This document shows positions 7,169 through 63,474 of a DNA stretch of 64,000 nt, piece by piece. The stretch is from IMG/VR virus record IMGVR_UViG_3300043446_004967, positions 32,001-96,000 of that record, one strand, 5' to 3'. This stretch comes from a virus. Both the position numbers and the translations under genes were made by a program. The notes beneath the pieces are model-generated. The model was not told the DNA's origin. It ran no database searches and saw nothing but the letters and a program-made list of their open reading frames with translations. The stretch's first letter is position 1; every line of letters starts with the position of its first letter.

Positions 7169-7939
7169 ATGAAACTTATCTTAGAGAACATCGGGCCTGT
7201 AAAAAAGGCCGAAATACACCTAAAGGATCTCACGGTCGTGGTGAGCGAAAACCCTTTATGCTCTGCGTTACTGCCTAAGGTCATTGACGCAGTGGCCCGT
7301 ATGGTAGGGCGCACCCCCACGGACTTCTGGGGAGACTCGTTAAAAGAGGTGCTAAAGGGCCTACAAAAAGAATTTTTGTGGGCCACCAAACCGTGGGAAG
7401 ACGGGAGCAGAGAGGGGAGGATAAGGGTTCATAGCGAAGGAAGTCTTGTGCTGGAACTTTCGGTGACTTGTACGACAGTCCTAAACGTAAGGCCGCCGGC
7501 AGAAACAACGGTAGACGACATTCAGGTGGGGGTGCGAGTTGAGGAGGCTATCACACACTCAACGCTTTCTTGTTCTTGTGGTGTCGCACACCCTTACAAC
7601 TTCTTACACTGGGCCAACCACCGTTATCCGGGCAGCCGAATGACGGTCGCAGGCGCTTTAATAGAGAGCGGAGTCCATCCTGTAGACCAACTTGCGCTAG
7701 CTAAGAATGTAGTGGAAACGGCGAGAAACTTTGTATTCGTGTGTGTTACTTCCCACAGCCCCTACATGGTGGAAGCTTTAAAAAGGTATTCCGACCGCGA
7801 AGGAGTGTCCGCTCGTTTCGGGCTGGTGGGGGAAGACGGAATCCTCCGATACGATTGTTTGAGCGACATTTTTGCCGGGTTCGCTCAACCTTTCGATGAA
7901 TTTAGGCGGATGGACGCGGAAGATATGCGTGATGAGTAG
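7169..7939 (+). CDS. Degenerate AAA_15/AAA_21-type ABC ATPase derivative
   Basis: N-term LENIGPVKKAEIHLKDLTVV; C-term ESGVHP and TSHSPYMVEAL; Walker A absent. Confidence 0.7.
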   Translation: MKLILENIGPVKKAEIHLKDLTVVVSENPLCSALLPKVIDAVARMVGRTPTDFWGDSLKEVLKGLQKEFLWATKPWEDGSREGRIRVHSEGSLVLELSVTCTTVLNVRPPAETTVDDIQVGVRVEEAITHSTLSCSCGVAHPYNFLHWANHRYPGSRMTVAGALIESGVHPVDQLALAKNVVETARNFVFVCVTSHSPYMVEALKRYSDREGVSARFGLVGEDGILRYDCLSDIFAGFAQPFDEFRRMDAEDMRDE

Positions 7940-7987
7940 GAGAGGCTCAATACATCAATAACCACTTTACCTCACAGAGTTTTTTAT

Positions 7988-8440
7988 ATGGAAACACAAG
8001 AACGAAGCTATATCACCATTAGTCTGACGTCGAAAGTCTCCGGCGGCAAGAAATTGACGGAGGTGGAAGTCGAGTTCACGACCGTCTTTTACAGCAGACA
8101 CCATGAGTCAGATGACTGGAACAGGGAGTCCCGCGAGAGCTTTACACAGACTATTGACCCTCTCCCTTTTGGCAGAGAGTGGTATCAGATTATTTCCGGC
8201 GCGAAAGAACGAGACACCGAACAAATCATGGACGCCTTACGTAGTTATCTGCATAAAGCGCCGGGAAGGGTAACACATCCGGAGAAGTACATACAGCTGA
8301 CCCAGGTTTGTCGCAGACTAGACTATGACGCTAAGGCTAGCACAGAAAGCCAGTTGCGGCTAGTGTTCTCCGTGCCGCTGACCGCGCAGGAGCAGGAATC
8401 ATGGGATTGCGTCCCAGAAGAAAAAACAGCTAGCGTATAG
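7988..8440 (+). CDS. Hypothetical protein
   Basis: ORF inside the operon. Confidence 0.6.
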   Translation: METQERSYITISLTSKVSGGKKLTEVEVEFTTVFYSRHHESDDWNRESRESFTQTIDPLPFGREWYQIISGAKERDTEQIMDALRSYLHKAPGRVTHPEKYIQLTQVCRRLDYDAKASTESQLRLVFSVPLTAQEQESWDCVPEEKTASV

Positions 8441-8470
8441 CCGTAGTGAGTTTTATGTGAGGGATGTACC

Positions 8471-8830
8471 ATGACTACGCATTGGCTTGAGGCTTACAAA
8501 ACACAAGCGAAGGCTGCCGCCGAACATTATGCGCGCGCAAGTCGCGAGGAAAAAAGAAAGTGCGTTATCGCAGAGATCAAAAAGCTAGCGGAAGGTGAAG
8601 CTAAGAAGCTGTATCCGGGCCGGCGCGTCGCCTGTGCATTTAAAGGAAAAAGCAAATTCTTCCCGTCCGAAGGGCAGTGGATCATCTATCAAGCGGAAGG
8701 TGGGCGGTTCAATATTCATGTTGTCCCGTTGGGGATTGGGCCTGACTATGTAGGCCCTCCCCCGAATCCGTGGGAGGTTTGGGAGGAGGGTGAAATAAAC
8801 AAACTGGAGGAGGTAATATGGACGGAGTAA
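8471..8830 (+). CDS. Hypothetical protein
   Basis: GAGG RBS. Confidence 0.6.
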   Translation: MTTHWLEAYKTQAKAAAEHYARASREEKRKCVIAEIKKLAEGEAKKLYPGRRVACAFKGKSKFFPSEGQWIIYQAEGGRFNIHVVPLGIGPDYVGPPPNPWEVWEEGEINKLEEVIWTE

Positions 8831-8905
8831 TGGGCGCGATGATATGGCGAACCTAAGTTCCACGTCTCCGGTAAGCTCTCAACCTAAAAAGTGTGGATAA
8901 CTCGT

Positions 8906-9370: not shown

Positions 9371-9389
9371 TCGTAAAAGGAGAGGGCGG

Positions 9390-9480
9390 CGGGGACGGTA
9401 GGATTTGAACCTTCGACGCGGCTGCAACGCCGCGTAACGGTTTAGCAACCCGCCGCCTTAAGCCGCTCGGCCAATTCTCC
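9390..9480 (-). tRNA. tRNA-Ser(GCT), degenerate or chimeric
   Basis: Minus strand: TGGCCGAGCGGCTTAAGGC D-arm, TT-GCT-AA loop, long variable arm, GGTTCAAATCC; 3 acceptor-stem mismatches; no CCA. Confidence 0.7.
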
Positions 9481-9683
9481 CTCTGATAATCCCGCCCTTT
9501 TTTAAGGGGCGGGACCGATCTACCGGATCGAGGGTAATGCTAACAATAGGCGACGACGTCGTCAAGCCTAAAAAACGGGGAGTACGCCATTCCCCCTTAC
9601 AGTGCGCCCTTTCTTCGCGCCTCTAAATAAGGCAAGACTAACCCCCCGTGCCGACGGCTACCGCCGCAACGCTCAGAGCCATG

Positions 9684-12473: not shown

Positions 12474-13379
12474 ATGCTAATTAAAAACAGGACGGATATC
12501 CCGGTTCCCGAGGAGTTTCTTAGGGGATTTGAGGTGCCGGATGGGCTTTGCGGGCAAGATTTGGCCGAGGAAATAAATAAAAAGGTTGACCTAGACTGGA
12601 GGTTTCTGGACCTGACCGACGCGAATTTGAGCGGCGCGAATTTGAGCGGCGTGGATTTGACCCGCGCGAAACTGATCTACGCGGATTTGACCGACGCGGT
12701 TTTGAGCGGCGCGAATTTGACCGACGCGAAAATGATCTACGCGAAACTGAACGACGCGGATTTGACCCGCGCGGACCTGACCGGCGCGAAACTGATCGAC
12801 GCGGTTTTGACCGACGCGAATTTGACCGACGCGGATTTGACCGGCGCGATACTGATCGACGCGAAAATGACCGGCGCGAAACTGATCGGCGCGGACCTGA
12901 CCGACGCGGTTTTGACCGGCACGGATTTGACCGGCGTGGATTTGAGCGACGCGGATTTGACCGGCGCGGTTTTGACCGGCGCGAACCTGAACCGCGCGAA
13001 CCTGACCGGCGTGGATTTGACCTATGCGGATTTGAGCTACGCGGACCTGATCGGCGTGGATTTGAGCGGCACGGATTTGAGCGGCGCGAAATATCTTGCG
13101 ACCGCAAAACACGATCGGATCATTAAAATCGATTTCCCAAATGCAAATAATTGGGCCGTCGGTGTTTTTGTCTCGTACTGCGGTAAAAAAGATATCTTAG
13201 CAATAGGGTGCAAAAGCTTTTTATTGAGTAAATGGGAGGAAATGGCGGAACATGAAATAGATGAACTCCATGATGATGCGTCAATGTTTTGGAAGAAAAA
13301 CAAAGAAGCAATTTTGGCGGAAGCCAAGAAAGCAATTAATGAATTTAGAGAAAAGGAGACAAAAAATGACCGTCCGTAG
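12474..13379 (+). CDS. Pentapeptide-repeat protein
   Basis: >30 A(D/N)LxX repeats with 15-bp DNA periodicity at 12610-13090. Confidence 0.92.
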   Translation: MLIKNRTDIPVPEEFLRGFEVPDGLCGQDLAEEINKKVDLDWRFLDLTDANLSGANLSGVDLTRAKLIYADLTDAVLSGANLTDAKMIYAKLNDADLTRADLTGAKLIDAVLTDANLTDADLTGAILIDAKMTGAKLIGADLTDAVLTGTDLTGVDLSDADLTGAVLTGANLNRANLTGVDLTYADLSYADLIGVDLSGTDLSGAKYLATAKHDRIIKIDFPNANNWAVGVFVSYCGKKDILAIGCKSFLLSKWEEMAEHEIDELHDDASMFWKKNKEAILAEAKKAINEFREKETKNDRP

Positions 13380-35492: not shown

Positions 35493-35660
35493 TTTTTTTC
35501 TTCTAAAACCAGCCTACCCTCTTTCGTGTCGCTCGTCAAGAGACAAATTTGGCGAACACATAAAAAAACCGCCCCGTGCTCAGGGCGGTTCCCTTGTAAA
35601 ACCCCCTTATTCCTTCCGGATGAAGCCCATGATAAGGCCCGGCGCAGCGGAGTCGAACCC
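35493..35660. repeat. 168-bp direct repeat, copy B
   Basis: Near-identical to 33404-33571. Confidence 0.92.
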
Positions 35661-36308
35661 AGATACCCCGAAGGACAACGGGTCTTTCGGGTCCGCTACG
35701 GATCCCCTGTTCGCGGCAGCCGCAAGAACCACCAGCTTGGCCTTCGGGTGGCTCATGCGCAGAAGATCCCGCAAGGTCCACTCGTTGCGATTGTAGTATT
35801 TAAGTGCCTGCCAAACTAACGCCTCGCCGGACTTCTCAGTAAACCAACGGGCGACCGCATCCCGCAAACCGCGACCCCATCCCCGCAACTTGTCCGAAAA
35901 ACTTACAAACATTAGAATGTCGGTGCCCGTGCGGGCGACCGAGGGCAAGGCAGCTAAGGCCAGCCCCTTCGCCTCCGGCGTGGAGCACGACGCGACCAAC
36001 GCTAAGGCAAAGATAACAGTATCCCGCTTCGCCGCCCTGCCGGCCATGCTGATCTCTACGATACGCGCGATAACGCGCACTGCGTCCCGCTCACACAATG
36101 TGAGCAGGATTATCGCGTTCTCTTTAGTCAATGCCTCCGGACGCACGTAATACGTGCCGTTTTGCGATCCCGTTGTTAAAAAACGGTCCAACTGCTCCCA
36201 CGGGTCCACCTCGTAGTAGGCGCCCCCGGCATTATTGGGGACTTGCCCCGGCAGAGGCTTTTTCGTAGAAAGCCCGCTCCCGCGCAAAATATCGCCATAC
36301 TTCGTCAT
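35607..36308 (-). CDS. Ro60/TROVE (Rsr) homolog with a large in-frame internal deletion
   Basis: QVPNNAGGAYY..LDRFLTTGSQNGTYY, ARTGT, GWGRGLR, KY..R.EWTLRDLLRMSHPK joined directly to the C-terminal AKLVV..SVADP.D..GFDSAAP. Confidence 0.9.
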   Translation of the reverse strand: MTKYGDILRGSGLSTKKPLPGQVPNNAGGAYYEVDPWEQLDRFLTTGSQNGTYYVRPEALTKENAIILLTLCERDAVRVIARIVEISMAGRAAKRDTVIFALALVASCSTPEAKGLALAALPSVARTGTDILMFVSFSDKLRGWGRGLRDAVARWFTEKSGEALVWQALKYYNRNEWTLRDLLRMSHPKAKLVVLAAAANRGSVADPKDPLSFGVSGFDSAAPGLIMGFIRKE

Positions 36309-36432
36309 TTTTTACGTCCTCTTTTCTCTTGTGTGCAGGCGTAACCCTGCACTGCCGCACGCTCAGCCGTCAACTACGGGAACCGCGAATAAGGCAAAAT
36401 GAAAAAAACGAGGGGGGTGGAGAAGAAAAGGC

Positions 36433-36533
36433 GCGGGGCACGCTCAGCAGAAAAGCGATTAATAGCAGACGGCAATGCTGCTAATAAAACTGCGACTGTC
36501 ACACAGTGGCTTGCTGCTGGTCTGGTGCCCCGC
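36433..36533 (-). ncRNA. Structured RNA element 4 (long closed hairpin, different class)
   Basis: Terminal stem GCGGGGCAC/GTGCCCCGC with internal hairpins. Confidence 0.5.
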
Positions 36534-36543
36534 ATAAAAGTAA

Positions 36544-36628
36544 CTCTAAACGAATTAGACATGCTTGTCGCACAGGAGCATATGATTACAAGTCATAACC
36601 TATGCGCTACGGCCCAACCCGTTTAGAG
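36544..36628 (-). ncRNA. Y-RNA-like (Yrl-type) element 3
   Basis: Closing stem; GGGCCG...GGUUAU...AUGUC; UAUGA-CUUGUAA-UCAUA hairpin. Confidence 0.7.
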
Positions 36629-36636
36629 ATACGGTA

Positions 36637-36717
36637 TAAACAAACTGGACATTAGTTGCCCACAGGAGGGTATGTATTTCAAGGACATAACCTGCGAGCA
36701 TCGGCCCAGTTTGTTTA
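36637..36717 (-). ncRNA. Y-RNA-like (Yrl-type) element 2
   Basis: 12-bp closing stem; GGGCCGAUG...GGUUAU...AUGUCC. Confidence 0.7.
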
Positions 36718-36719
36718 AG

Positions 36720-36802
36720 TATCGGGCATAAATCACCAGCCGGAGAGGGCGCAAGGCCCCATTTAGTATCTTGAATGATAACCAGCCGGTAGCGGCTCGA
36801 TA
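36720..36802 (-). ncRNA. Y-RNA-like (Yrl-type) element 1
   Basis: Closing stem; GAGCCG...GGUUAUC...AUGCCC. Confidence 0.65.
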
Positions 36803-36808
36803 AAAAGA

Positions 36809-36837
36809 ACTCTATCGCAAAGCCCCGAACGACGCAA
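36809..36837 (-). promoter_or_regulatory. Promoter of the Y-RNA/Ro60 operon
   Basis: TTGCGT-17-TAGAGT immediately upstream of element 1. Confidence 0.6.
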
Positions 36838-37055
36838 GCTTTTTTTGAAAAAAATCAGCCGAACGCCAGTGCAATTTTTACTATACTATAGTCTAATAGG
36901 TATGTATCTAATTGAGGTTACTCTCGCCTAAGCGAGAGTAACCTACGTGGCGTGGCCTTACGGTCGAGAAATATACCACAATTACGGCGCCGCCCGAGGC
37001 GACGCGCTTAAATTCCCATTTACTATCTACTATTTGCCGGAAGGGAGACGGCCCG

Positions 37056-37538
37056 TTAACGGATAAGCCCCGTTCGCACGTATAAATGCAAATCCTCCGG
37101 AAGCTCCTGTACCTCCCGGCTCTCCATAAAATAACGGTAAGCCGCCTTTCCCGCCGCTTCAACCTTCTCTCTCTTATCCCAGGAAAAATCCTCTGGGCTA
37201 TGCCATGAGGACCAGCCAATGGAGACAATGTAAACTGGCCGTGCCTTGCACGTAAACGAAGAAAACTCCGAACTCGCCCCGTTCTCCTTCAAAAATGGCA
37301 GACAGTAACGTTTAGCCTCGTCGCGTAGTAGCAGCGCGGGAGATACAAAAGCGTCAATGTAGTGCCCGTGGCCCGGAAACTCCGTCGTCAAAGACACTAA
37401 AGCCGTCTGAGCCGCGTTATATACGGCTGAGTATGCCTTATTAAAATCGGACTCCCCTTTCTCGGAGAGGAAGCGGCAAGAGAACCTGTCTAACCGTAAT
37501 AATCCGTCGACCTTATCGGAGGAAATGAACACCGGCAT
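37056..37538 (-). CDS. Hypothetical protein
   Basis: ORF with RBS. Confidence 0.55.
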   Translation of the reverse strand: MPVFISSDKVDGLLRLDRFSCRFLSEKGESDFNKAYSAVYNAAQTALVSLTTEFPGHGHYIDAFVSPALLLRDEAKRYCLPFLKENGASSEFSSFTCKARPVYIVSIGWSSWHSPEDFSWDKREKVEAAGKAAYRYFMESREVQELPEDLHLYVRTGLIR

Positions 37539-37568: not shown

Positions 37569-38633
37569 CTAAGTTAAAAACATACGTAGCACATTTAACG
37601 CTACGTAATACGCTAGATTGCAGGGCACTGCGTTACCTATTAATCGAAACGCAGCGGAATTACCGCAGTCTATGGCAAAGTCGTGCGGAAAGGTCTGTAG
37701 GGCCAAGGCTTCGTCCACCGTTAACCTACGCAAGTCCGGAGGAATCTGCGACGCCGCATAGGGCGCCCCGCCCCGCACTAAGTGCGAATGGTAGGAGGAG
37801 ACCCAGTCCTCGGCGTCGGGGTCGGCTAGCCTCCGCCCGTCGATGATCGGTGTCTTGTTGCCACCCAACGACGCGCATAACGTCGGAGCGTAGCCTTCAA
37901 GATTGATAGGGCGGCCGGCCCCGTTAAACAGCATTCCCGCATAAGGAGACCGGCGAATAATCGGGTTGCGCGCGGGCGTAATCACCGCGTTGCACGTCCG
38001 CAAATTATTACCCTCCCCCGCAGGGGCTAAGTGTGCCAACGCCTGCCTGACCGTAGGCCCTTCCTCACGTAAGGGCCAAAAAAGCCCGGAAGATGCATAA
38101 GGGGCACGCAGCCTTCCGCCGCATCCTTCGGCTATATCAGAGCTGACCCCCACTAAAAAACAACGAGCCCTAGTCTGAGGCACGCCAAAATGAGACGCGC
38201 ATAATACGTCCCAATGTACGTAATACCCTAGAGCGTTAAAAGCACGGCTCAGGAGTTCCCGCAACGAACGCCACTTACGTAAGTGGTAGAGCGCCGCGAC
38301 GTTCTCCATGACGAACGCCCTAGGGCGAACGGTGCGTACCGCCGCTACAAACGCCCACACAAGTGCGCTCCTGACGTCCTCCGGGTCCATTTTACCCGCT
38401 ACGGAAAACCCCTGACAAGGAGGCCCCCCAAAAACTAAGTCAACCTCCCTATACGCAGCTAACGCGGGCAAAAATGCACGAACATCGCCGCAAGCGATGT
38501 TCCCTAGTCCGTTCTCCTCGTACACTCGACAGGCAACGGGGTCTACGTCATTAGACCACACAACGCCAACGCCCGCCCGCCTGACCCCTAAGTCCATGCC
38601 TCCTGCACCGGAGAAAAGTGACACCGCGTACAT
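37569..38633 (-). CDS. C5-cytosine DNA methyltransferase (orphan)
   Basis: FSGAGG, GGPPCQ, ENV, QTRAR, GNAV motifs. Confidence 0.95.
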   Translation of the reverse strand: MYAVSLFSGAGGMDLGVRRAGVGVVWSNDVDPVACRVYEENGLGNIACGDVRAFLPALAAYREVDLVFGGPPCQGFSVAGKMDPEDVRSALVWAFVAAVRTVRPRAFVMENVAALYHLRKWRSLRELLSRAFNALGYYVHWDVLCASHFGVPQTRARCFLVGVSSDIAEGCGGRLRAPYASSGLFWPLREEGPTVRQALAHLAPAGEGNNLRTCNAVITPARNPIIRRSPYAGMLFNGAGRPINLEGYAPTLCASLGGNKTPIIDGRRLADPDAEDWVSSYHSHLVRGGAPYAASQIPPDLRRLTVDEALALQTFPHDFAIDCGNSAAFRLIGNAVPCNLAYYVALNVLRMFLT

Positions 38634-38862
38634 ATGACATGGCCCCTTACGCCGCATACTGTAGAAAAGAGAACGCCCTAGTAACCGTCCTCCTCATCGT
38701 CCCTCCTCTCGTGCACACAATCACGGCAGTTACAGCACGGCGAAGGCTCTTTACAAACCCACGCCACCGCCCAAATCACCGCCGCACCCAACGCGCAAAA
38801 TGCAGTAAACATACCTATTCCTTCTCTAAGAATTTAATAACCTAACCCTAGCCCCCAGCGAG

Positions 38863-39141
38863 CTACCCCTCCACCAGACGCCCCGCTAACGTAACCAAGT
38901 CCGTTACCGTCCGACACTCCGTGACGGCGTCGAGGATCCCCTCCCCGTTACCTACATCCACCTCGCTCAGCTCCTCAACCCCTATAGTCGTAAACTCTTG
39001 TAAGAAGGCCCGCCCAAACTCAGCCTGCGCCTCCTCATCGTGGCCCCACAAATCACATAGCGAGTCGTCAGAAGCAATCTCGTCTTCGTCAATATCCAAA
39101 ACCTCGCCCAATAGGGCCATCACTCTGTCTTCTATTTCCAT
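38863..39141 (-). CDS. Acyl-carrier-protein-like acidic protein lacking the Ppant serine
   Basis: ACP-like layout; DLWGHDEE where DLGxDSL is expected. Confidence 0.65.
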   Translation of the reverse strand: MEIEDRVMALLGEVLDIDEDEIASDDSLCDLWGHDEEAQAEFGRAFLQEFTTIGVEELSEVDVGNGEGILDAVTECRTVTDLVTLAGRLVEG

Positions 39142-39161: not shown

Positions 39162-40487
39162 TTAATAAAATAATTTTATTGTAGTTTTCTGTAGCCATTC
39201 GGGCCATCGCACGAGTCCCCACGGACACCGTATAGATTCGCCCTGCTTAGCGGCAAGGTGGCGCCAAGCGACCCCATAGTAGGCCCCGCAATAGCGGAAG
39301 TCAAGGTGACACTGATCCGCCCCGGGCGCGAGTTCCCCGGCAAAGCGCGACATCAAAGACTTCCCGTGCGCCGTATGGTTGTCATGTGCATACAAGGGAA
39401 TGCGCTTATACGCACCGGAAGGCAACCGATAATCCTCCGCCGTGAGGATGTAGGCTTTACGGCGTTCGGATACGGGCGGCCCGGCCTCAGGGTTTTCGCC
39501 CATCAGCGCGTCCGCGAAAGCGTTGATCTCGTGATAGCCTATGGACTTCACTAATCCATGCCTGCGCTTGATAGCCGCCTGAACAGACTCGACGTAGCGC
39601 GCGTCATAGGAGAAAGCATTTGACCCCGATCCCCCGAAAAAAATCATGCCGAGAAGATCAAACAGCGCAAGAATATGCGCGGCGTGATCGGGAAGGCCCT
39701 TCTTCGGCTGGGACTTCAACAACCCTTTTAGGCCGTACTGTACCTTAACCGCGTCACCCTCTTTAAACCCCTCTAAAAGGGCTTCCTTGAGGCCCGCATA
39801 CGCCGTGGGGGGCAAAACATCCCGCGCCTGACTAACTTTATACGAAAAGTCTTTCGCCAAAGCAGCATAACCCCGCATCTCTGCGCAGAAAATAGCGTAG
39901 CGCTGCGGCTGATCCCACTTTTTAACGCTTCCGCAAAAAAGAAGAACGCACTCGTATAGTAGACGGTAATCCTCCTCCGGAGACCGCACTTTCCCGGAAA
40001 GCTGAACAAGCGAATCCAGTAAAAAACGTAGTAGAGAAACATCCCTAGTCTCCTCGAATAGGACGTTTATCATGTAACGCACGGGCGAGGCAAACCCCCG
40101 AAAGCGCGTAAGTAAAAGCGCCCAAAAATACGCCGCCGCTACATCGCCTCTCCGTAACTCCTTGTGGAAAGCGCTCGCCACCTCCCAATACAAAGGGTAT
40201 CGCGTGCTCAACGCCTTTAGATAGTCCGCCAGCAGCGGAAGCTGGCCGTGACGCTGCGTAATGTCCCATAGCGCCTGCAATTTATGGCTGCAATAGGGCC
40301 GGAGAACACGCTCCCCCTCCGCGCCATTGCCTATAGGGCTGCCCGCCGCGCACGTACAAGTACCCTCCGCTAAGTTAACGCGGAAAGCCGCGCCTCCTGA
40401 ACGAGAACTGCCTTTGACCGTGCAGACCCCCGTAAATAAAGGATTTATAGGCGTAAATATATCTGACATAATTTTCAGGTTTCCCAC
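39162..40487 (-). CDS. SWIM Zn-finger + MgsA/RarA C-terminal-like protein
   Basis: CTC..CSH; SAFHKELRRGDVAAAYFWA; YAHDNHT. Confidence 0.6.
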   Translation of the reverse strand: MGNLKIMSDIFTPINPLFTGVCTVKGSSRSGGAAFRVNLAEGTCTCAAGSPIGNGAEGERVLRPYCSHKLQALWDITQRHGQLPLLADYLKALSTRYPLYWEVASAFHKELRRGDVAAAYFWALLLTRFRGFASPVRYMINVLFEETRDVSLLRFLLDSLVQLSGKVRSPEEDYRLLYECVLLFCGSVKKWDQPQRYAIFCAEMRGYAALAKDFSYKVSQARDVLPPTAYAGLKEALLEGFKEGDAVKVQYGLKGLLKSQPKKGLPDHAAHILALFDLLGMIFFGGSGSNAFSYDARYVESVQAAIKRRHGLVKSIGYHEINAFADALMGENPEAGPPVSERRKAYILTAEDYRLPSGAYKRIPLYAHDNHTAHGKSLMSRFAGELAPGADQCHLDFRYCGAYYGVAWRHLAAKQGESIRCPWGLVRWPEWLQKTTIKLFY

Positions 40488-55194: not shown

Positions 55195-55825
55195 ACATAA
55201 CCTCCCGGACTTGCTGGTCTATCTCCGCCCGGAGATCGCCGGGCCACCAGTGCATCCCTTGAACGCCGGAGGACGAACTGAGATACAGCCGGGTGCCTTT
55301 TGCTAATTTTTTATGCAAAAAGTCCGCCACATGGCTTAGCTCCGCCGCCGTATATGGACACTCCGTCGTCCCGTCATAAAAAGACGAAATGAATAAGGCC
55401 CCGCAACGCTCAATCAAGGATATGACTTCCGCATCCACCTCGGAAAGACCGGACTTTGTGACAAGCGTCGTCAACCATCGTAGGGAGATAAAATAGGACG
55501 TTGTCTTACCTCCGAACAATTGGTGTTGCGTGTACAACAACTCCTTCGTTAACGCTTTAAACACGGGCAACCGAACGGCGGCTTCTCCGGAAACAAGAAT
55601 CCCTTTCCCCGCAACGCAATCCTCGCGGAAAGACGTTCCGGAGCCTTCCATATCCGTCAAATACCGGCGGAGCATTAACCCCGTGCGGCCGGTGCTCAAC
55701 AAGCTATGCTCGATAAACGACTGCGGCACGTTACAACCTTTGAGGACCGCCGCGCAGATCTCCTTATGGGAAGGGGCCTCCGGCGGCCCGTTTACGTCGT
55801 TAGCTAAGCGGGGGGTCTCAAACAC
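55184..55825 (-). CDS. DnaC/IstB-like loader, Walker A degenerate
   Basis: Lies between initiator and DnaB; KGILVSG followed by a non-canonical P-loop. Confidence 0.5.
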   Translation of the reverse strand: MFETPRLANDVNGPPEAPSHKEICAAVLKGCNVPQSFIEHSLLSTGRTGLMLRRYLTDMEGSGTSFREDCVAGKGILVSGEAAVRLPVFKALTKELLYTQHQLFGGKTTSYFISLRWLTTLVTKSGLSEVDAEVISLIERCGALFISSFYDGTTECPYTAAELSHVADFLHKKLAKGTRLYLSSSSGVQGMHWWPGDLRAEIDQQVREVMCAA

Positions 55826-57624
55826 TACTCGTTCCCCTCCTCGCCCTTAGCCTCACGAGCCTCACGAGCCTCACGCGCGTCTCTCGCAGCCAAAAAGGCG
55901 GCGAGTCCGCCATGAGCAAGCCCTGCCGGCGGGACGCCGCCACGAGTAGCCGCCGCACCGTCGTAGCTTACGGCAGCGCGAGGCCCATGAGCAGCGAAAC
56001 TCGTGCGCAACGTCTGGAGCATTTGCTGGAGTTCGGTAACGCGTGTTTCCAGTTCGGAAATGCGTTGGTCCTTTTCGGCAAGCTGCGCCTGCGCTTGGGA
56101 CAAGCCCGCCTGTGCCGCCGTTACCTCCGTGCGCAAGCGCACGCTGCCCGAACCCTTCGGCGCGAGCGGGTCAACGCAGCGCTTATACGCAGGTAAAAAT
56201 TTGTTAATATGTTTTACCAAGAACAGCAAGTTCGGAGTTCTCGGACAGTTCGCGGCATACTTTACGCCGACACACTCCTCCAAGATTGTGGCCCAGTTAC
56301 GAATAACCGTGGAGAAGAAATCCGCAGGATCTATGTCCTCAGGAAAAGCTTTTTCTACCAGCCGCGCCATTTGCGCTTTTTCCGCAACGGTCCATAGGTG
56401 GGGCGGAAGCGCAGGAAAAGCCTGTTCCACCGCGTTATCCCACGCGATGCGTGCTGCGCGAGCCGCCGAACCTTTTGTCCGCATAGCGCCCCGCTCAGCT
56501 AACCGATTCGTTACCGCTGTTTTGACGTTTTCAGATATGTTAAATAGTATCTCCTTCTGCTCCGCAGAAGAACGGGCAGGAACAGGTTTTTGCCGTGAGG
56601 GTGAGAGATCCTTTTTCGAGGTGGAATCCCGCGAAGAATTGTTATCTGAGTTATTTTTCATTTCTACAACTTTAAACTTATTAATTTTACGTAACAATCT
56701 ACCCCGGCTACAAGTAGCCGGTTCTAGGCTAGCGCTGTCGCAGGTTGGAATCAACTCCTCCGTTGGGTTTCCTGGAAAAACAGACTGAGAGGTTGAAGGA
56801 CACTTTTGCAGTGGGGTATCGACCTGCCCTTCCTTTTTCGGTCCTCGTTTTTTTCCTTTATCTTCCGTCGAGCCGGTTCCGGCGAGACGGATCGGGAGGA
56901 TAACTTCTTCGTTTAACTTCTTCTTCTTTTTACTTCTTATATTAAAGGTTCTGGCAAGTGTGACATCTCCCCCTATCGCACTTTCGCCGTCACCCCCTAT
57001 CGCAAGCGTGGCACCACCCCCATTGCCACTTGGGGCCGTATTTTCGGAGGTAATCGAGGGGCCAGCGGCTCTCGTTTCGGCGCTCTTTTTCGCTTTCTTT
57101 TTGGGCTTTTTCGGGCAGGTTATCGGAGTAGGCTCTTTTCCTGCGGGGACATACAAGTGGAAATCATCCTGAAACGGGCGAATATCTTCCGGTCTCCACG
57201 CGAAGTTTAACCCCATTAGCTTACGGGATTCCATCAAACTTACATTGTAATCCTCCTCCGGTCTCTCTTTTTTTGGGCAACCTCCAGGATGGCCTACTGT
57301 TATTATACCTTTTTCAGTGAGACTTTTTACCGCGCGTAATACTTGTCTTTTGCTTTTTCCTGTACCTTGAGTGACCATTACACGTTTATTGGTCTCAGGA
57401 TCAGTGACAAATACACCATGTGTTAGTTGGCTAGTGCTTATCCGTTCCTGTGTTTTTTTAAATTGTAATGTTCTTAAAGCAATAAACAGCATCACTTTCA
57501 GTTCGGCTCCGTCGAGATGGGGAGCGAAAAGTTCAAGCGCATCCTTCACAGTAGGGAGCACATCTTGCCTCTTTTGATCAAAGTTCTTAAGTCTTAGATT
57601 GACTTTCAGCGCATTAGCGGCCAT
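55825..57624 (-). CDS. Replication initiator, lambda O-like N-terminal wHTH
   Basis: LDGAELKVMLFIALRT..K..RISTSQL..TGKSKRQVLRAVKSLTEKGII. Confidence 0.75.
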   Translation of the reverse strand: MAANALKVNLRLKNFDQKRQDVLPTVKDALELFAPHLDGAELKVMLFIALRTLQFKKTQERISTSQLTHGVFVTDPETNKRVMVTQGTGKSKRQVLRAVKSLTEKGIITVGHPGGCPKKERPEEDYNVSLMESRKLMGLNFAWRPEDIRPFQDDFHLYVPAGKEPTPITCPKKPKKKAKKSAETRAAGPSITSENTAPSGNGGGATLAIGGDGESAIGGDVTLARTFNIRSKKKKKLNEEVILPIRLAGTGSTEDKGKKRGPKKEGQVDTPLQKCPSTSQSVFPGNPTEELIPTCDSASLEPATCSRGRLLRKINKFKVVEMKNNSDNNSSRDSTSKKDLSPSRQKPVPARSSAEQKEILFNISENVKTAVTNRLAERGAMRTKGSAARAARIAWDNAVEQAFPALPPHLWTVAEKAQMARLVEKAFPEDIDPADFFSTVIRNWATILEECVGVKYAANCPRTPNLLFLVKHINKFLPAYKRCVDPLAPKGSGSVRLRTEVTAAQAGLSQAQAQLAEKDQRISELETRVTELQQMLQTLRTSFAAHGPRAAVSYDGAAATRGGVPPAGLAHGGLAAFLAARDAREAREAREAKGEEGNE

Positions 57625-57837
57625 AATCCTCTCCGGGGAATAAGCTCCATGAAAACCCCACAGAAGCCCATGATAGGGAGCCGCTGAGGGGGGCTAAGCG
57701 GTAAGTCTTAGCCGCCGAGCGGCTTCCTGTCAAGGGTGCCCCCCTCTAGCGCGGAGAAAAAAGAACGTGGTGTTTTCTCCTTTTTGCACCGTCGTTGGTT
57801 ACGTTTCTTTTCTCTCCGCGCGTTGAGTAATCCTGCC

Positions 57838-58748
57838 ATGCCCTCCCCTTTTACATTCATTGACCTGTGCGCCGGCATAGGCGGTATGCGCATTCCTTTT
57901 GGCGCACTTGGCGGGGAATGTGTTTTTTCTTCCGAGATAGACCCGCATTGTCAACGGGTGTATGCGGCGAACTTTGGGGAGTCCCCCTTTGGCGACATTA
58001 CCTCCTTGTCGCCTGACGCCGTGCCGGACCATGACCTTTTATTGGCCGGGTTTCCTTGCCAAGCTTTCAGCGTTATTGGACGGCAGTTAGGGTTTTCCGA
58101 TACGCGCGGGACGCTCTTTTTTAGTATTGCGCAGATTCTCCAAGCCAAACGACCACGCGCCTTTCTGTTAGAGAACGTTAAACAGCTCCGGACACACGAT
58201 GAGGGCCGCACTTTTTTGACGATCCTCCGCACGTTGGAAGGCTTAGGTTACGTGGTGTATCACACCGTGCTCAATTCTCTGGATTTCGGGGTTCCCCAGA
58301 AAAGAGAACGCACCTACATTGTGGGGCTTTTGGGCGGCGGCGCCTTTTCCTTTCCGTCGAAAAAAACGGACTACGATCTGTCGTCCGTGCTGGAACCCGA
58401 GAACGGCGTAGGTTCAAAGTATTTCGCCTCTGAGCATATTCGAGTTAGCCGACGTGAGCGGGTAGGTTTCGTGCCTTCCGGCCCCTCCGTCTGGCATGAG
58501 AATAAGAGCGGAAACGTGTCAGCCCTGCCCTGCCCTATTCTTGCGCGCTGCGGGCGTATGCGTCTTATAATTATCTGTTGGTCAACGGGGAGCGCAGGTT
58601 CACCGAAAGGGAGCTGCTTCGCTTACAGGGGTTCCCCGAGCACTTTGAGGCCCCCGTAAGCTATGGTCATGTACGAAGGCAAACCGGCAATGCCGTTACG
58701 GTGACGGTAATTCAGGCGATTGCCGGCCCTCTGGTCGCCGCTCTTTAG
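57838..58748 (+). pseudogene. C5-cytosine MTase frameshifted at (GCCCT)3
   Basis: Motifs I-VIII in one frame; LQGFP and GNAV in another after 58536. Confidence 0.88.
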
Positions 58749-59428: not shown

Positions 59429-60274
59429 TCAGCTTTTCGCGTTTTGGGGAAAATTAAACCCTGAGCTTCGCCAGATTTCGCTGACCGGGCGGTTTCCGTT
59501 ATAATCTTCCATCACCCTCGGCAAGTCGCTTATCTTGCGCACGATAGCAAAGGGTTTTCCTTCGCTGTACTCCCGTCTAAAGAAGACTACTTCCTCCGGT
59601 TCCGCGTAGAACAAAGAGTCAGGTTGGTATATCGTGGCGATCTTCTGCACCTCTCGGTCCGCCTGCACTTCCGCGTGTAACGTTTCCCTTAGACAAATCT
59701 GATCGGCAGGGTAAACCCCTCGTTCGATGTTCTCCGTCATCTGCAAGGCGCCGCCGCTAGGCAACAGGAACCGCAACGCCGCATACGATTCTTCGTCCGT
59801 GTCTCGCAGGCGTGTCGCTAGAGGTACGTCCTTTTCACTTATGCTTAGGGTTTTCGCGCGTGGTTGCGGGCGCTCCGTAGACGAAACGATCTCCGATAGG
59901 GTCTCCTCCACCACAAAAGTTCCCCCCTCCCACACAATCTTTATGAGATAGATGTGTTTCTTCCGTTGAGGGAGGGCAGGATCATACGGGTCGAGCGTTT
60001 CTAGTATCAGAGAAATATGCGTGCTCCGCGCGCGGCGCGTCTCGCCAAATCCTCTTAAGTTGGCGAAGGACACCATGCCGGCTTCGCCTCCTCGTTCTTT
60101 TACAAGCTCTACCGCAGATCGCCCGGAGGCCAAACTTTGTGCAAACTTGATCGCGTCGAGCAAGGTGGACTTGCCTGTGCCCGTGTCCCCGACTAAGAAG
60201 ATCAGCCTAGGAAGGTGCTGCAATGAGGTATTCGCGTGAAGCCTGTAGTTGTACAGGCCGAGGGAAACTATCAT
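59429..60274 (-). CDS. Degenerate, internally shortened AAA_21-type ABC ATPase
   Basis: GDTGTGKSTLLDA; ENIERGVYP in place of EEPENGLHP; H-loop eroded. Confidence 0.7.
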   Translation of the reverse strand: MIVSLGLYNYRLHANTSLQHLPRLIFLVGDTGTGKSTLLDAIKFAQSLASGRSAVELVKERGGEAGMVSFANLRGFGETRRARSTHISLILETLDPYDPALPQRKKHIYLIKIVWEGGTFVVEETLSEIVSSTERPQPRAKTLSISEKDVPLATRLRDTDEESYAALRFLLPSGGALQMTENIERGVYPADQICLRETLHAEVQADREVQKIATIYQPDSLFYAEPEEVVFFRREYSEGKPFAIVRKISDLPRVMEDYNGNRPVSEIWRSSGFNFPQNAKS

Positions 60275-60741
60275 AACCCGTGCTCTACCTCGTTAACGTA
60301 AATGTTTGCTTCTAAAAAAAGTTCTATAGCTTTCTGTTGGCTGTCCGCCCATGTACTTGCCTTGTCCCTCTGTGGGAATGTGACGTAGCGCATGCCCGAG
60401 GCTATAATGACTCCAGCGCAGCGTACACACGGCGGTTTTGTCACATAAAGCACACGCGGACGATGGTTCGACCGTAGGCAGCTGAGAATGGCGGAGATCT
60501 CCGCATGGATCACGATTTGGTTTTTTACCTCCTTGTCGTGCCACCGGTCGTCATCCGCTATTCCGTTTGGAAACCGGTTTACACCATAAAAAGAGTTTCC
60601 CGTCGCCGTCTGCACCACGGCGCCTACTTTATCTCTGGGGTCATGGCTATGGGACTGCGCATAAGAAAAGGCCCCCCGAAGGGGGCCTTCCACGCTGCGA
60701 AAGTGTTCGCTTCCTTTTTTTATAAAGGTGTATCTCTCCAT
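60271..60741 (-). CDS. dCMP deaminase
   Basis: KVGAV, HAE, PCVRC. Confidence 0.9.
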   Translation of the reverse strand: MERYTFIKKGSEHFRSVEGPLRGAFSYAQSHSHDPRDKVGAVVQTATGNSFYGVNRFPNGIADDDRWHDKEVKNQIVIHAEISAILSCLRSNHRPRVLYVTKPPCVRCAGVIIASGMRYVTFPQRDKASTWADSQQKAIELFLEANIYVNEVEHGL

Positions 60742-60745
60742 TAAT

Positions 60746-61060: not shown

Positions 61061-61260
61061 CCCGCCTTTACGGTTTCCGTGGAGGTCTGGGTCTGGTACA
61101 TCTCCGGTTTTTCCTGCGCGTCTGTTTGTGCCCCTGAAACATATTTTAGCGCGGCTTCCGTCGCAGCCTTGCAGCCTACCCCTTGGAAGTTTTGTGCGTC
61201 CACTTGGACGTGTTGCCCGTTCGGGCTGACTGTGATTACCAATCTCTTTCCTGCGGTCAT
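61048..61260 (-). CDS. DUF2997-like protein
   Basis: ITVSPNG..V.AQNFQG.GC..AT..KPEMY. Confidence 0.75.
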   Translation of the reverse strand: MTAGKRLVITVSPNGQHVQVDAQNFQGVGCKAATEAALKYVSGAQTDAQEKPEMYQTQTSTETVKAGCAS

Positions 61261-61299
61261 TTTATTTTATTACCTTTTTTTATAAGTTAAGCTTTTTTT

Positions 61300-61375
61300 T
61301 GGTTCTCCGGACAGGATTTGAACCTATGACCCGGGCGTTATGAGCGCCTTGCTCTAACCTCTGAGCTACCGGAGA
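61300..61375 (-). tRNA. tRNA with CAT anticodon (likely Ile2), CCA encoded
   Basis: Full cloverleaf; CT-CAT-AA loop; C4-G69 and C5-G68. Confidence 0.88.
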
Positions 61376-61455
61376 GTATAAAGGCGGGGCCGCCGCTAAT
61401 CACACTGTTGGCCCCGACTCTTGCCCTCGTCGTCAGACCTCGGGCATCCCCGACT

Positions 61456-63474
61456 TTAGCGGGTTTTGTCGCCCGCGTCAACCGGCGCGGGCTTCGGCGT
61501 TTCAGTTTTGCCTAGCCCTGCGGCGATGCGCTCCATCTCTAAAAAAGCATGGTAGGCGACGTTATCGCTAAACGGGGCGGTCAGCTCATCAAGCTCGGCG
61601 CTAAGCCTCGCTTTTTCCTCCTCCGAGGCGTCTTTTCCTTGTTTTAGAATCTCATAATATTGTTGGGCCGCTTCCTTCATCGCTTGGCGGCGTTTGCTCA
61701 TTTGCGGCAGTCCCACACCCATCACGTCTTCGAGGATGTCTTCGATGGGTTTATCCCAGTATTCGCCTCCTGTAGGGTACGGGTAGGCGCAGCCTGTCTC
61801 GATGTGGCGCCCCTCGCAGGTACGATTGTCCTCATGATTGACCTCCTCGTCCCACTTTCTTTTAGCAAGGTCCGACTGCCCGCGCAGTTCATGGGCCGCA
61901 TAGACGGCAGCTTGATGGCTAAGCTGGAGCGCGCGCGCCTCCAGCTCCGTGCGCATCTGATGTCGTTCGGCCTCCGACGCAAATCCTCCGTGGTCTAAGC
62001 GGCGGTAGTATTCCTCCGAAACGTCGGCTAGTTTTTGCCGAAGCGCGCTTACTTTCGGCGTCGGTACACCCATAACTTCTTCCGCGATAGCCTCGATAGA
62101 CTCGTCGGCATACACACCGCCGGAAGGTTGAGGGTAGGCAATGCCTTTTCTACAGGAGTAAGGCACGTCCGGATCGTCGTCCTCGTGCTCCCGCTCCTCA
62201 AAATTTTCCTCGGAAGTGGGTTGCGGTTCTTCTTCTCTCGCGTCAGGAATCCCCGCAGCGTATCTTTTCATTTTGAGGAAGGCTATCTCTCCCGGGTAAT
62301 CTTTGAACGAGGCGCACAGCCTATCCAGCTCCGCTCCGACGGCCATTTTTTCCTCCTCCGAGAGGGGTTTAACCTTTTCCGCAAGTGTTAGGTACTGAAG
62401 CGCGGTTGCCCTTAGCTTCACTTGCCGCGCGCTTACTTGCGGCAGCCCTATCCCCATGAAGTCTTCGACGATATCCTCTATGGAATACGCGGAAGGGTCT
62501 TCTTCGCGTCTTTCCAGTCGCGTCACGTCGATTGCTTGGCCCGCCGTAAGGGATTGCAGGATAAACGGCGAGTGCCCCGTCGCAATAAATTGAACAGCGG
62601 GGAAAGCTTCTTGCAGCGCGCTCACAATGGTGCGCTGCTCTAAAGGGTGCAGCGAGGTCTCTAGGTCTTCGATCAGAACTACGCCCGGCGTAATCTCTAC
62701 AGCTCGTGCGCCCGCGTGGGGGTTTAACCACGCCGCGCGACAAGCTAGGTCTAGCGCTATGGTTAAAACGCTCCTTAACCCTCCCCCTAGCCTGCTAAGA
62801 GGGAACCAGCCCGACGCTTTAAGCTTTACGATAATTTCGGGCGTACCCTCTCGGATCTCCATCACGCGAAGGTCTTCGCACTCCGGCACGCATTGCCTGA
62901 CTGCCGTTAATGCGGCGCCCCATGCCGCCGCTATGTCCGGGTAGGCGGAGCTAGGCATTCCCTGTAGGAGGGAGAGTAAAAGGGCCACGGTGGTCTTCTT
63001 TTTATGGAACGGTAAACAGCCGTCGTATGCCTTAGTATAGGGAGGTACCCCCGGCCTTCCCAGTTTTTTTCGCTTGGGCAAAGTGAACGTACCCGGAGCC
63101 GTCCGATAGGTTCCGTACCATGCAATAACAGGCCGGGTTTCCCGCCTGTCGTCCGTCGGCGCGGCTGCGACTAGCGCAGAGGACGGCGCCAAGGATAAAT
63201 CCCAACGAAGACGTTGTCCCTTTACGTAGACGCGCGCCTTCATAGCCGTGTGGGGGTCCGTCGGCACGGTATAGCGGGTCTCCCCCGCGCATCCGCACAG
63301 GTCGGCAAGCAAATAGGATACGGCGTCGAGGACGGAGGTCTTCCCCGCGCCGTTACCCCCGATCAAGTAGTTAAACTGCGGGTGAAATACGATATCCGCT
63401 AAGGCTAATTGCCTAAACGAACGTAGCGATAACCGCTCTATTCTGAACTGATTTTTTGCGTCAGCCGTGCTCAT
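61456..63474 (-). CDS. PtuA/AAA_21-like ABC ATPase with triplicated C-terminal domain
   Basis: GGNGAGKT; GVVLIEDLETSLHP; GHSP; three 'IE.I.E..MG...P..S.R' repeats. Confidence 0.8.
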   Translation of the reverse strand: MSTADAKNQFRIERLSLRSFRQLALADIVFHPQFNYLIGGNGAGKTSVLDAVSYLLADLCGCAGETRYTVPTDPHTAMKARVYVKGQRLRWDLSLAPSSALVAAAPTDDRRETRPVIAWYGTYRTAPGTFTLPKRKKLGRPGVPPYTKAYDGCLPFHKKKTTVALLLSLLQGMPSSAYPDIAAAWGAALTAVRQCVPECEDLRVMEIREGTPEIIVKLKASGWFPLSRLGGGLRSVLTIALDLACRAAWLNPHAGARAVEITPGVVLIEDLETSLHPLEQRTIVSALQEAFPAVQFIATGHSPFILQSLTAGQAIDVTRLERREEDPSAYSIEDIVEDFMGIGLPQVSARQVKLRATALQYLTLAEKVKPLSEEEKMAVGAELDRLCASFKDYPGEIAFLKMKRYAAGIPDAREEEPQPTSEENFEEREHEDDDPDVPYSCRKGIAYPQPSGGVYADESIEAIAEEVMGVPTPKVSALRQKLADVSEEYYRRLDHGGFASEAERHQMRTELEARALQLSHQAAVYAAHELRGQSDLAKRKWDEEVNHEDNRTCEGRHIETGCAYPYPTGGEYWDKPIEDILEDVMGVGLPQMSKRRQAMKEAAQQYYEILKQGKDASEEEKARLSAELDELTAPFSDNVAYHAFLEMERIAAGLGKTETPKPAPVDAGDKTR

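Follow-up and report, generated by a model that had tools for sequence, protein, structure and literature searches.

Why does one phage genome hold six open reading frames that resemble cellular proteins, each without a catalytic or cofactor element? The window considered here, a stretch of 64,000 nucleotides, is the middle of a complete phage genome of 110,897 bp with terminal repeats, obtained by metagenome assembly. An earlier note had read six of its genes, namely three "unrelated" defence-type ABC ATPases, a mini-Ro60, an acyl carrier protein (ACP) without its serine and an ATPase-less RarA-like protein, as host components that were captured, disarmed and turned into decoys; the RarA-like frame, for which it gave no coordinates, is taken here as P0004. 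As claimed there, all six frames are open at their places (Table 1). However, dead DNA is quickly deleted from phage genomes and an intact frame is the default for any phage gene, so ORF intactness alone is weak evidence. The word "unrelated" was loose, as the three ATPases belong to different subfamilies but to one superfamily (AAA_15/AAA_21).

Homology is solid for four of the frames, at the level of the fold for P0002 and weak for the ACP-like P0005. The six genes are real and the named parts are missing, but at least three separate histories lie behind them, and they are sorted into three classes: the pseudo-ATPases P0003 and P0001 (class A), P0004 (class B), and P0006, P0002 and P0005 (class C). 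This three-class explanation as a whole is given a probability of about 0.5. Of the six, only P0004 occurs in eight more distantly related phage records, of which four are at least 90% complete; P0001, P0002, P0003, P0005 and P0006 are therefore accessory, not housekeeping, genes. The homologies, motif states, conservation, absence of PtuB and Ro60 deletion described below were observed in this analysis.

Table 1. Positions of the six genes and of their features in the window
Feature	Positions	Strand	Remarks
P0001, Walker-less ABC-ATPase shell, 256 aa	7169..7939	+	
P0001 SENPLCSA, residues 26-33	7244..7267	+	in place of Walker A GENDTGKS of full-length relatives
P0001 conserved C-terminal module, residues 161-256	7649..7936	+	HP..Q, SHSPYMVEALKRYSDREG, PFDEF..MDAEDM
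P0006, mini-Ro60, 233 aa	35607..36308	-	Pfam TROVE and vWA_Ro60; NCBIfam Rsr
P0006 deletion junction, residues A190/K191	35736..35741	-	
P0005, ACP-like acidic protein, 92 aa	38863..39141	-	
P0005 D35-E36-E37, aligned with ACP DSL	39031..39039	-	HMMER alignment, itself marginal
P0004, core phage protein, 441 aa	39162..40487	-	CxC..CxH zinc-finger-like N-terminus, MgsA_C-type domain, helical C-terminus
P0004 MgsA/RarA C-domain-like region, residues 97-192	39912..40199	-	VIA-align
P0002, shortened AAA_15/21-fold protein, intact Walker A, orphan, 281 aa	59429..60274	-	
P0002 Walker A GDTGTGKST, residues 29-37	60164..60190	-	
tRNA-Met (CAU), directly downstream of P0003	61300..61375	-	usual ptuB place
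P0003, PtuA-like orphan ATPase, 672 aa	61456..63474	-	PADLOC PtuA E 1e-86; Pfam AAA_21 and AAA_15; clade alignment
P0003 CTE copy 3, terminal, ancestral, residues 572-662	61489..61761	-	
P0003 CTE copy 2, residues 455-545	61840..62112	-	37% identical to copy 3
P0003 CTE copy 1, residues 326-420	62215..62499	-	49% identical to copy 3
P0003 Walker B region LIEDLE, residues 267-272	62659..62676	-	LIDE[IL]D in bacterial PtuAs
P0003 Walker A GGNGAGKTS, residues 39-47, intact	63334..63360	-	

The ATPase look-alikes P0003 and P0001

P0003 matches the PADLOC PtuA profile PDLC00278 with 290 bits in four stretches over the ATPase head and the C-terminal extension (CTE); it is not the NCBIfam retron-Ec78 PtuA equivalog, for which it scores 116 bits against a cut-off of 500. 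The H-loop is intact in the alignment with PtuAs, as is Walker A, and P0003 therefore probably still binds ATP. A canonical Walker B and an LSDG signature are not found: the phage clade carries LIEDLE and LGGG[LI] (or LGGED), whereas 12 bacterial PtuAs carry LIDE[IL]D and LSDGY. GGNGAGKT, LIEDLE and TGHSP are common to all seven members of the P0003 clade, and the change of DE to ED in Walker B is constant in these proteins, which are 69-73% identical to P0003. The claim that P0003 has lost catalytic parts thus needs rewording, since Walker B and the signature are altered, not lost. To judge from these motifs, the ED swap and the LGGG signature probably prevent normal hydrolysis, but an ED Walker B might still support it.

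The terminal CTE copy is 60% identical to those of bacterial PtuAs while the ATPase domain is only 31% identical, and bacterial PtuA pairs of equal ATPase divergence have a median CTE identity of 35% and a maximum of 39.5%; copy 1 has a median identity of 40% to bacterial CTEs, and P0003 sister proteins carry one to three copies. This high conservation could also come from recombination instead of constraint. In solved PtuAB complexes the CTE of PtuA binds PtuB, stand-alone PtuA does not hydrolyze ATP, and PtuB is released when ATP falls (PMC12819146). Of 30 ptuA loci from bacteria or archaea, 29 have an HNH ptuB gene immediately downstream; here a tRNA gene takes that place, no PtuB was found anywhere in this phage genome in a search to E <=1, and there is no nuclease among the ORFs flanking P0003. 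The binding and anti-defence steps, here and for P0001, are all ones that we infer. The module present here in one to three copies is the one with which PtuA holds its HNH nuclease, PtuB, in the PtuAB complexes of Septu and retrons. In the likeliest mechanism, P0003 would capture host PtuB or co-assemble with host PtuA and keep the nuclease in its silent ATP-bound state, as by a phage-made antitoxin.

P0001 has an ABC/SMC-type ATPase head fold (AF2 model, pLDDT 80), with Foldseek matches to the SMC head, GajA, retron Eco8 and PtuA at probabilities of about 1.0 and E values of 7e-5 to 3e-3, and it matches PADLOC PD-T4-4_A with E 1e-8. Walker A GENDTGKS stands at residue 26 in 117 of the 123 relatives longer than 300 aa, but Walker A, the signature motif and DEPE are missing in P0001 and its five closest short relatives, and P0001 and the five sister clusters measure about 219-255 aa. 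A motif test of P0001 itself gave neither an SGIK-type signature nor DEPE, leaving only HP..Q and SHSP. The description of P0001 as an ABC ATPase without catalytic parts therefore stands, with the head fold kept and Walker A, signature and Walker B gone in all of this short group. Its C-terminal module, which is also present in full-length ATPases, is 70% identical in amino acids to that of the homologue in the related locus L001 (dN 0.20, dS 1.5); in the clade, dN/dS is about 0.13 in this module and about 0.56 in the middle, the former site of the ATP motifs, and both termini are under purifying selection. P0001 also occurs in a closer fragment (G001). It lies among Prs-like and Nampt-like (NAD-rescue) genes together with macrodomain and pentapeptide genes, an order found again in L001; an anti-defence-island argument drawn from them is one of guilt by association. 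P0001 still has the beta-hairpin at its N-terminus and the C-terminal module found in HEC-02A/PD-T4-4_A/NsnB-type defence ATPases, and most likely it would poison such a system or titrate its partner.

The constant ED swap in the P0003 clade and the contrast in dN/dS within P0001 uphold the argument that the losses are not random decay. On this comparative evidence, P0003 and P0001 each represent a conserved pseudo-ATPase lineage with a probable role against host defence.

P0004, mini-Ro60 and the orphans P0002 and P0005

P0004 was rightly called an ATPase-less RarA-like protein at the level of the domain, with an MgsA_C-type fold and no P-loop. Residues 97-192 superpose on the five RarA/MgsA structures 3pvs, 2r9g, 3bge, 8g28 and 2qw6 with Z 10.6-12.3 and rmsd 2.1-2.8 Å over 85-94 residues; profile comparison with MgsA_C reaches E 0.002, to RarA fragments only, and Pfam PF12002 (MgsA_C) gives no match at E <=10. 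Neither P0004 nor any of its 97 homologues (420-465 aa, on contigs mostly of 85-105 kb) has a P-loop or AAA Pfam match. P0004 adjoins the replication module; its synteny holds in eight relatives, with P0007 in seven of the eight related loci. Contrary to the earlier reading, it was not captured by this phage: its family, with about 100 members and no ATPase among them, is ancient and belongs to the core genes of a large group of phages, and P0004 is not a decoy. The RarA-type C-domain is probably used to form oligomers or to bind partners during replication and recombination.

The mini-Ro60, P0006, is adjoined by a Y-RNA-like array. It is a truncated Ro60, as claimed, covering only positions 2-175 of 442 in TROVE and 121-165 of 165 in vWA_Ro60, with an NCBIfam Rsr match at positions 21-192 of 531; the TROVE HEAT ring is incomplete in it, and its vWA part is without MIDAS. 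Residues 1-190 of P0006 align colinearly with the full-length protein P0387 (538 aa) at 77% identity, and the P0006 tail aligns with P0387 from residue 494 onwards at about 91% identity; residues 191-493 of P0387 (303 codons, in frame, including the MIDAS motif DVSGS) are missing from P0006. By this alignment one in-frame deletion of 303 codons gave rise to the mini-Ro60, and because a single such event, in which the frame is kept by chance in one case of three, suffices, selection is not needed to account for it. P0006 is probably an inactive remnant, but it could also have a new function beside the Y-RNA-like array.

No relatives were detected for P0002 or P0005; they are orphans and stand in class C together with the mini-Ro60. 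P0002 matches ATPase profiles only within residues 1-70, while its predicted structure (Atlas model) falls to AAA_15/21 clusters with TM 0.82-0.84 over residues 1-279. The reading as a disarmed ATPase is partly borne out: the fold agrees with an ATPase, Walker A is intact, and the supposed erosion at the Walker B and H-loop positions (TENIE and IYQP) comes from an alignment by eye, the profile alignment spanning only residues 20-43. Its start codon overlaps the stop codon of a dCMP-deaminase gene (60271-60741). For P0005, the earlier reading as a Ser-less ACP is weakly borne out: the predicted structure falls to ACP clusters at TM 0.66-0.71, and in a marginal alignment Glu36 takes the place of the phosphopantetheine serine Ser36, but all profile scores lie below the curated cut-offs (NCBIfam ACP, E 0.0012 and 18.7 bits against 106; Pfam PP-binding, 15.1 bits against 20.8) and the matches to PDB ACPs are marginal, with E 0.02-0.1.

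One strategy or several histories

It is very improbable that all six genes are captured host components made into decoys under one genome-wide counter-defence strategy. The six intact frames, each short of a catalytic or cofactor element, agree with this, as do the conservation of the disarmed state across the clade in two genes and the known counter-defence genes in which the genome is rich (a NARP1-like pair, a macrodomain, two C5 methylases and a pentapeptide protein). However, P0004 is a core gene of the whole phage group beside the replication module, the mini-Ro60 goes back to one deletion event while a sister lineage keeps the full-length gene, P0002 and P0005 are without relatives, and RarA, ACP and Ro60 are not defence components. 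The unifying theme of the earlier note is given up on these grounds, and what is left of the decoy idea does not extend to a genome-wide strategy: only P0003 and P0001 may reasonably be hypothesised to act as decoys or sponges, and they are the only two credible decoy candidates against bacterial immunity and, judging from their sequences, two new anti-defence candidates.

Defence genes based on AAA_15/21 are frequent in phages and prophages, and the ATPase look-alikes may be parts of phage-borne defence or superinfection exclusion, active in a non-canonical way with effectors unrecognised or encoded elsewhere. P0003 has the whole architecture of a PtuA with Walker A and H-loop in place, P0002 keeps its Walker A, and genuine stand-alone Septu PtuA is also without ATPase activity (PMC12819146). 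This is nevertheless unlikely, since P0003 has no PtuB or other nuclease beside it or genome-wide where 29 of 30 cellular loci have an adjacent one, P0001 is without any ATP motif, and the genome, bounded by terminal repeats, carries a replication module of its own. Similarly doubtful is the view that the genes are neofunctionalised pseudoenzymes with housekeeping roles, for example as scaffolds for replication, for the handling of RNA or for assembly, and that their likeness to defence ATPases is only a common fold; the accessory nature of all but P0004, the nuclease-binding module as the best-conserved part of P0003 and the place of P0001 among counter-defence genes speak against it, while P0004 fits it, pseudoenzymes are common, and translational coupling of P0002 to dCMP deaminase hints at nucleotide metabolism.

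Comparison with known systems

The three-class explanation can be set against known proteins. P0004 resembles the RarA/MgsA C-domain and the clamp-loader collar, with residues 97-192 superposing at Z of about 12 and the motif SA[FL]HK..R..D in common, but its family of about 100 lacks the AAA+ module and has a zinc-finger-like CxC..CxH N-terminus. P0005 is like an ACP in length, acidity, a helix-1 sequence aligned from residue 1 and a predicted four-helix fold (TM about 0.7), and unlike one in its scores under every curated cut-off, its Glu for the phosphopantetheine serine and its lack of detected relatives. Over its first 190 residues P0006 is 77% identical to a 538-aa phage-type Ro60, and GenBank phage Ro-like proteins measure 525-555 aa; unlike Ro60/Rsr (TROVE and vWA), it is without 303 residues, and with them most of the HEAT ring and the MIDAS motif are gone.

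The full-length relatives of P0001 match the HEC-02A, PD-T4-4_A and NsnB models with E 1e-23 to 1e-35 and share with it the N-terminal hairpin and the C-terminal module; P0001 and its five sister clusters differ from these ATPases in being short and in lacking Walker A, signature and DEPE. Similarly, P0003 is like PtuA of Septu and of retron Ec78/Eco7 PtuAB in its full-length profile match, ABC-type head, Walker A, H-loop and PtuB-clamping CTE, but it is phage-encoded, has no PtuB, is followed by a tRNA gene, carries ED instead of DE and LGGG instead of LSDG, and has the CTE up to three times. The known escapes from Septu are supply or amplification of tRNA-Tyr, and this genome has no tRNA-Tyr. 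Phages are reported to make antitoxin mimics and inhibitors of defence nucleases, such as ICP1 Gp145 against DarT and Gad1 against Gabija (PMC13728456). The logic proposed here, a phage protein that binds and silences a host effector, would by analogy be the same, but P0003 is homologous to the regulatory ATPase of the very system it would silence and does not have an unrelated fold. It is tentatively suggested, as possible although not probable, that the P0003 clade is a new anti-Septu/anti-retron-I-A family, a hydrolysis-impaired PtuA mimic soaking up host PtuB through one to three CTEs, and that the P0001 clade is a second, independent family of ATP-motif-free "ATPase shells" poisoning HEC-02/PD-T4-4/Nsn-type systems; if so, phages make inhibitors out of the regulatory ATPases of two-gene ATPase-nuclease defences.

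The PtuA-like protein P0003

P0003 is matched by the PADLOC PtuA models in four stretches (E 1e-86); an alignment set it beside three near relatives and PtuAs from bacteria (12 sequences), and motifs were checked in seven clade members. No member of the P0003 clade has lost Walker A (GGNGAGKT) or the H-loop (TGHSP); Walker B reads LIEDLE against LIDE[IL]D in cellular PtuAs, and the signature reads LGGG[LI] or LGGED against LSDGY. Since these altered motifs are common to clade members that are 69-73% identical to P0003, they are fixed lineage features rather than decay. The C-terminal extension (CTE), the module that binds PtuB in solved PtuAB complexes, is present three times (residues 326-420, 455-545 and 572-662), and sister proteins fall into a single-copy form of 472-481 aa and a three-copy form of 632-676 aa. 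The terminal CTE is 60% identical to bacterial CTEs while the ATPase domain reaches only 31%; for bacterial PtuA pairs with similar ATPase divergence, CTE identity is 35%, with a maximum of 39.5%. According to PMC12819146, paired CTEs in the solved structures of the Ec78 and Septu complexes hold the helical C-domain of the HNH nuclease PtuB between them; Septu PtuA alone traps ATP without hydrolyzing it and is proposed to release PtuB when ATP drops.

A tblastn search of GenBank phages with P0003 gave only weak partial matches, the IMG/VR scan gave no close relative, and the JGI metagenome scan for the clade returned nothing. The database gene call for this frame, P0060, has 389 aa against 672 aa in the open frame, and that for the RarA-like P0004, P0136, has 372 aa against 441 aa; since homologues align across the longer frames, both annotated starts probably lie too far downstream.

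Of 30 cellular ptuA loci, 29 have an HNH ptuB gene that begins no farther than a few tens of bases from the end of ptuA. Judged by its sequence, the preferred reading of P0003 is a sponge for PtuB or an antitoxin-like mimic, that is, a partner-less, ATP-binding PtuA with predicted impairment of hydrolysis and with extra modules that would bind PtuB; among the decoy ideas of the earlier note, anatomical evidence is strongest for this one. As the chief rival explanation, P0003 would belong to a phage-borne defence whose effector was not recognised. Downstream of P0003 lie a tRNA-Met and then a 104-aa ORF without HNH residues, upstream lie a weak DUF1257-like ORF, an uncharacterised ORF and an AAA+ ATPase of the classic kind whose N-terminal region is long, and a PtuB query of the whole phage genome gave no match. 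A complex prediction for P0003 residues 320-672 with PtuB of the Sphaerotilus natans locus L024 scored 0.00 ("no answer") and is neutral on binding.

P0001 as an ATPase shell

P0001 has no Pfam match and no tblastn match among GenBank phages, and its two ends are matched by PADLOC PD-T4-4_A (E 1e-8) and PHROG 14430 (E 8e-8). Run in full against 1.84 billion representatives, phmmer found 227 relatives. Among these, 123 exceed 300 aa, and 117 of them have G.N..GK[ST] at residue 26 as well as the DEPE Walker B and the SHSP H-loop, and match the HEC-02A, PD-T4-4_A and NsnB models; P0001 and its closest proteins (six with the query, 219-256 aa) have unrelated sequence at the P-loop position, no signature motif and no DEPE. 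These six retain an N-terminal MKL.IENIG.IKKAEI hairpin and a C-terminal SHSPYMVEALKRYSDREG ... PFDEF..MDAEDM module, and in the AF2 model of P0001 (pLDDT 80) the SMC/GajA/PtuA-type head fold is still there.

Compared by the Nei-Gojobori method with its homologue on the related contig L001, P0001 has dN 0.20 and dS 1.5 over residues 161-256, and dN 1.14 and dS 2.0 over residues 28-160, the ratios being rough because synonymous sites are close to saturation. Gene order on L001 is as in the window (macrodomain, P0001 homologue, pentapeptide protein), and the first homologue is followed some 900 bp farther downstream by a second, more degenerate paralogue, which has GPQSGGIR at the Walker A position and has lost the H-loop too. 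P0001 is a conserved pseudo-ATPase within a counter-defence neighbourhood, for which a dominant-negative or partner-titrating role is a plausible candidate.

Genes with other histories

The RarA-like gene of P0004 was located by reading candidate ORFs; the protein has no match in Pfam, PHROGs, PADLOC or NCBIfam, Pfam MgsA_C matches nowhere on the genome, and the RarA-type domain was revealed only by profile-to-PDB and structure searches. There are 97 homologues (33-79% identity, 420-465 aa), mostly on contigs of 85-105 kb, with invariant C44, C46, C66 and H68, a SAFHKELRRGD motif and YAHDNHT..GK. In the PDB, the family profile has no matches other than C-terminal fragments of RarA/MgsA (best E 0.002), and residues 97-192 of the AF2 model (pLDDT 92.8) fit five RarA/MgsA structures with Z 10.6-12.3, clamp-loader collars scoring lower (Z 5-7.6); the resemblance is therefore real. 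The upstream neighbour, P0007, is syntenic in seven of eight related loci, and no ACP-like gene was seen beside the P0004 homologue in any of these eight. With this family size and synteny, P0004 falls outside the decoy theme, as a long-established core protein of phages encoded next to the replication genes rather than something captured and disarmed in recent times.

The unusual architecture of the mini-Ro60, P0006, was confirmed by Pfam. A cluster look-up gave P0387, encoded on a 14,352-bp contig, a Ro60 of 538 aa whose vWA domain is complete and contains DVSGS. Its identity to P0006 is 77% over P0006 residues 1-190, starting at the first Met, and about 91% over the 44 C-terminal residues; from this colinear identity at both ends, P0387 residues 191-493 are missing in P0006, the join lying between ...SH[PA]KA and KLVV.... 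One in-frame deletion accounts for the gene, so selection for a "mini" form is not needed and the decoy theme fails here as well. By what is known of Ro60 structure, P0006 cannot form a Ro-type ring, since it has lost the MIDAS site and the greater part of the HEAT ring. Ro-like proteins of GenBank phages are full length, no other mini-Ro60 with this junction was seen, and the IMG/VR scan gave no close relative. FuzzBuster looked like a mini-Ro60 by tblastn coverage and was rejected, as its annotated gene has 525 aa; the SM23 Ro-like match also looks mini by this coverage, and the evidence for rejection covers the FuzzBuster gene only. The Y-RNA-like tandem array upstream of the mini-Ro60 matched no Rfam family at E up to 1.

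P0002 and P0005 are orphans. Profile matches to P0002 are confined to residues 1-70, the whole of its ESM Atlas model is matched by AAA_15/21 clusters about 400 aa long, and no relatives were found in GenBank phages, IMG/VR, JGI metagenomes or related phage records. The overlap of its start with the stop of the dCMP-deaminase-like gene suggests that the two are translationally coupled. P0005 aligns from its first residue, and in register, with 18 PDB ACPs (E 0.02-0.1), D35-E36-E37 standing opposite the DSL of ACPs; its NCBIfam and Pfam scores are far under the cut-offs, its Atlas model reaches a TM of about 0.7 with ACP clusters, and no relatives were found, including by tblastn of GenBank phages. 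An ACP-like fold is likely from these predictions.

The earlier note's observation that the six genes keep open frames while losing catalytic parts is largely correct, including the RarA resemblance; the ACP match is marginal and Walker A of P0002 is intact. Its argument against random decay holds for the fixed motifs of the P0003 clade and for residues 161-256 of P0001. Captured, disarmed decoys stand as a hypothesis for P0003 and P0001, not as a genome-wide theme: intact but motif-less genes of one phage can have unrelated histories and are not to be pooled as one strategy.

Genome setting and known defence systems

The source, one IMG/VR virus record of 110,897 bp, has direct terminal repeats; the window covers its bases 32001-96000, and megablast gave no nucleotide match in GenBank phages for window 40-60 kb. 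The minus-strand replication module (window 42-57.6 kb) encodes a DnaB-like helicase, a family-A DNA polymerase, a primase, a second helicase, a UvsX/RecA-like recombinase and an exonuclease, headed by a 599-aa ORF for which a search of GenBank phages gave no protein match. The plus-strand block at 3.2-13.4 kb holds HAD/PNKP phosphatase, Prs-like, Nampt-like, macrodomain and pentapeptide-repeat protein genes, the last encoding a possible DNA mimic. A pentapeptide-repeat gene occupies the equivalent relative position in L001. The gathering score of the Rfam tRNA model is reached only by tRNA-Met, and the phage genome has no tRNA-Tyr.

Table. Coordinates of the features discussed (window positions unless a contig is named)
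Feature	Position	Strand	Remark
HAD/PNKP-type phosphatase, Prs-like, Nampt-like, macrodomain (four genes)	3242-6523	+	
P0001	7169-7939	+	256 aa
tRNA-Ser (GCU)	9391-9481	-	91 nt, by ARAGORN; below gathering score of Rfam tRNA model
Pentapeptide-repeat protein	12474-13379	+	301 aa; Pfam E 1e-66
Pentapeptide-repeat gene in L001	L001 6462-6692		
P0006, mini-Ro60	35607-36308	-	233 aa
Y-RNA-like tandem array	36250-37100		
C-5 cytosine DNA methyltransferase	37569-38657	-	
P0005, ACP-like	38863-39141	-	92 aa
P0004, RarA-like	39162-40487	-	441 aa
Head of replication module	55825-57624	-	599 aa; weak PHROG match, O-like replication initiator, E 1e-4
C-5 cytosine DNA methyltransferase	57736-58659	+	
P0002	59429-60274	-	281 aa
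dCMP-deaminase-like gene	60271-60741	-	stop overlaps P0002 start (ATGA)
tRNA-Met	61303-61375		
P0003	61456-63474	-	672 aa
Classic AAA+ ATPase	G000:C1:96729-98654 (L073 1330-3255)	-	641 aa; two genes upstream of P0003, just past window end; Pfam AAA + AAA_lid_3
Second P0001 paralogue	L001 4575-5240	+	

Nine records of related phages, at least 90% complete in four cases, lack P0002, P0003, P0005 and P0006, and P0001 was found among these records only in the closest fragment. Sister homologues are 79% identical for P0004, 69% for P0003 and 48% for P0001, and appear to lie together on one 90,171-bp sister contig; if so, the ATPase look-alikes P0003 and P0001 diverge faster than the core protein P0004, like arms-race genes.

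The four-gene block resembles a NARP1-type NAD-reconstitution operon, but with additional members. Pairs of an AAA_15/21-type ATPase and a nuclease, which include Septu, Gabija, PARIS, retron I-A and many candidate systems, rank with the most frequent defences of bacteria. Signatures for virome searches are the ED swap, CTE repeats and P-loop loss with a conserved C-terminus. In one review, only tRNA-based escape from Septu is described (PMC13728456). If the reading of P0003 as a PtuB sponge or mimic is true, this partner-less PtuA, in which the nuclease-binding module is multiplied, would act directly as a protein inhibitor made from Septu's own scaffold, and the Walker-less shell of P0001 would be the same trick on another family.
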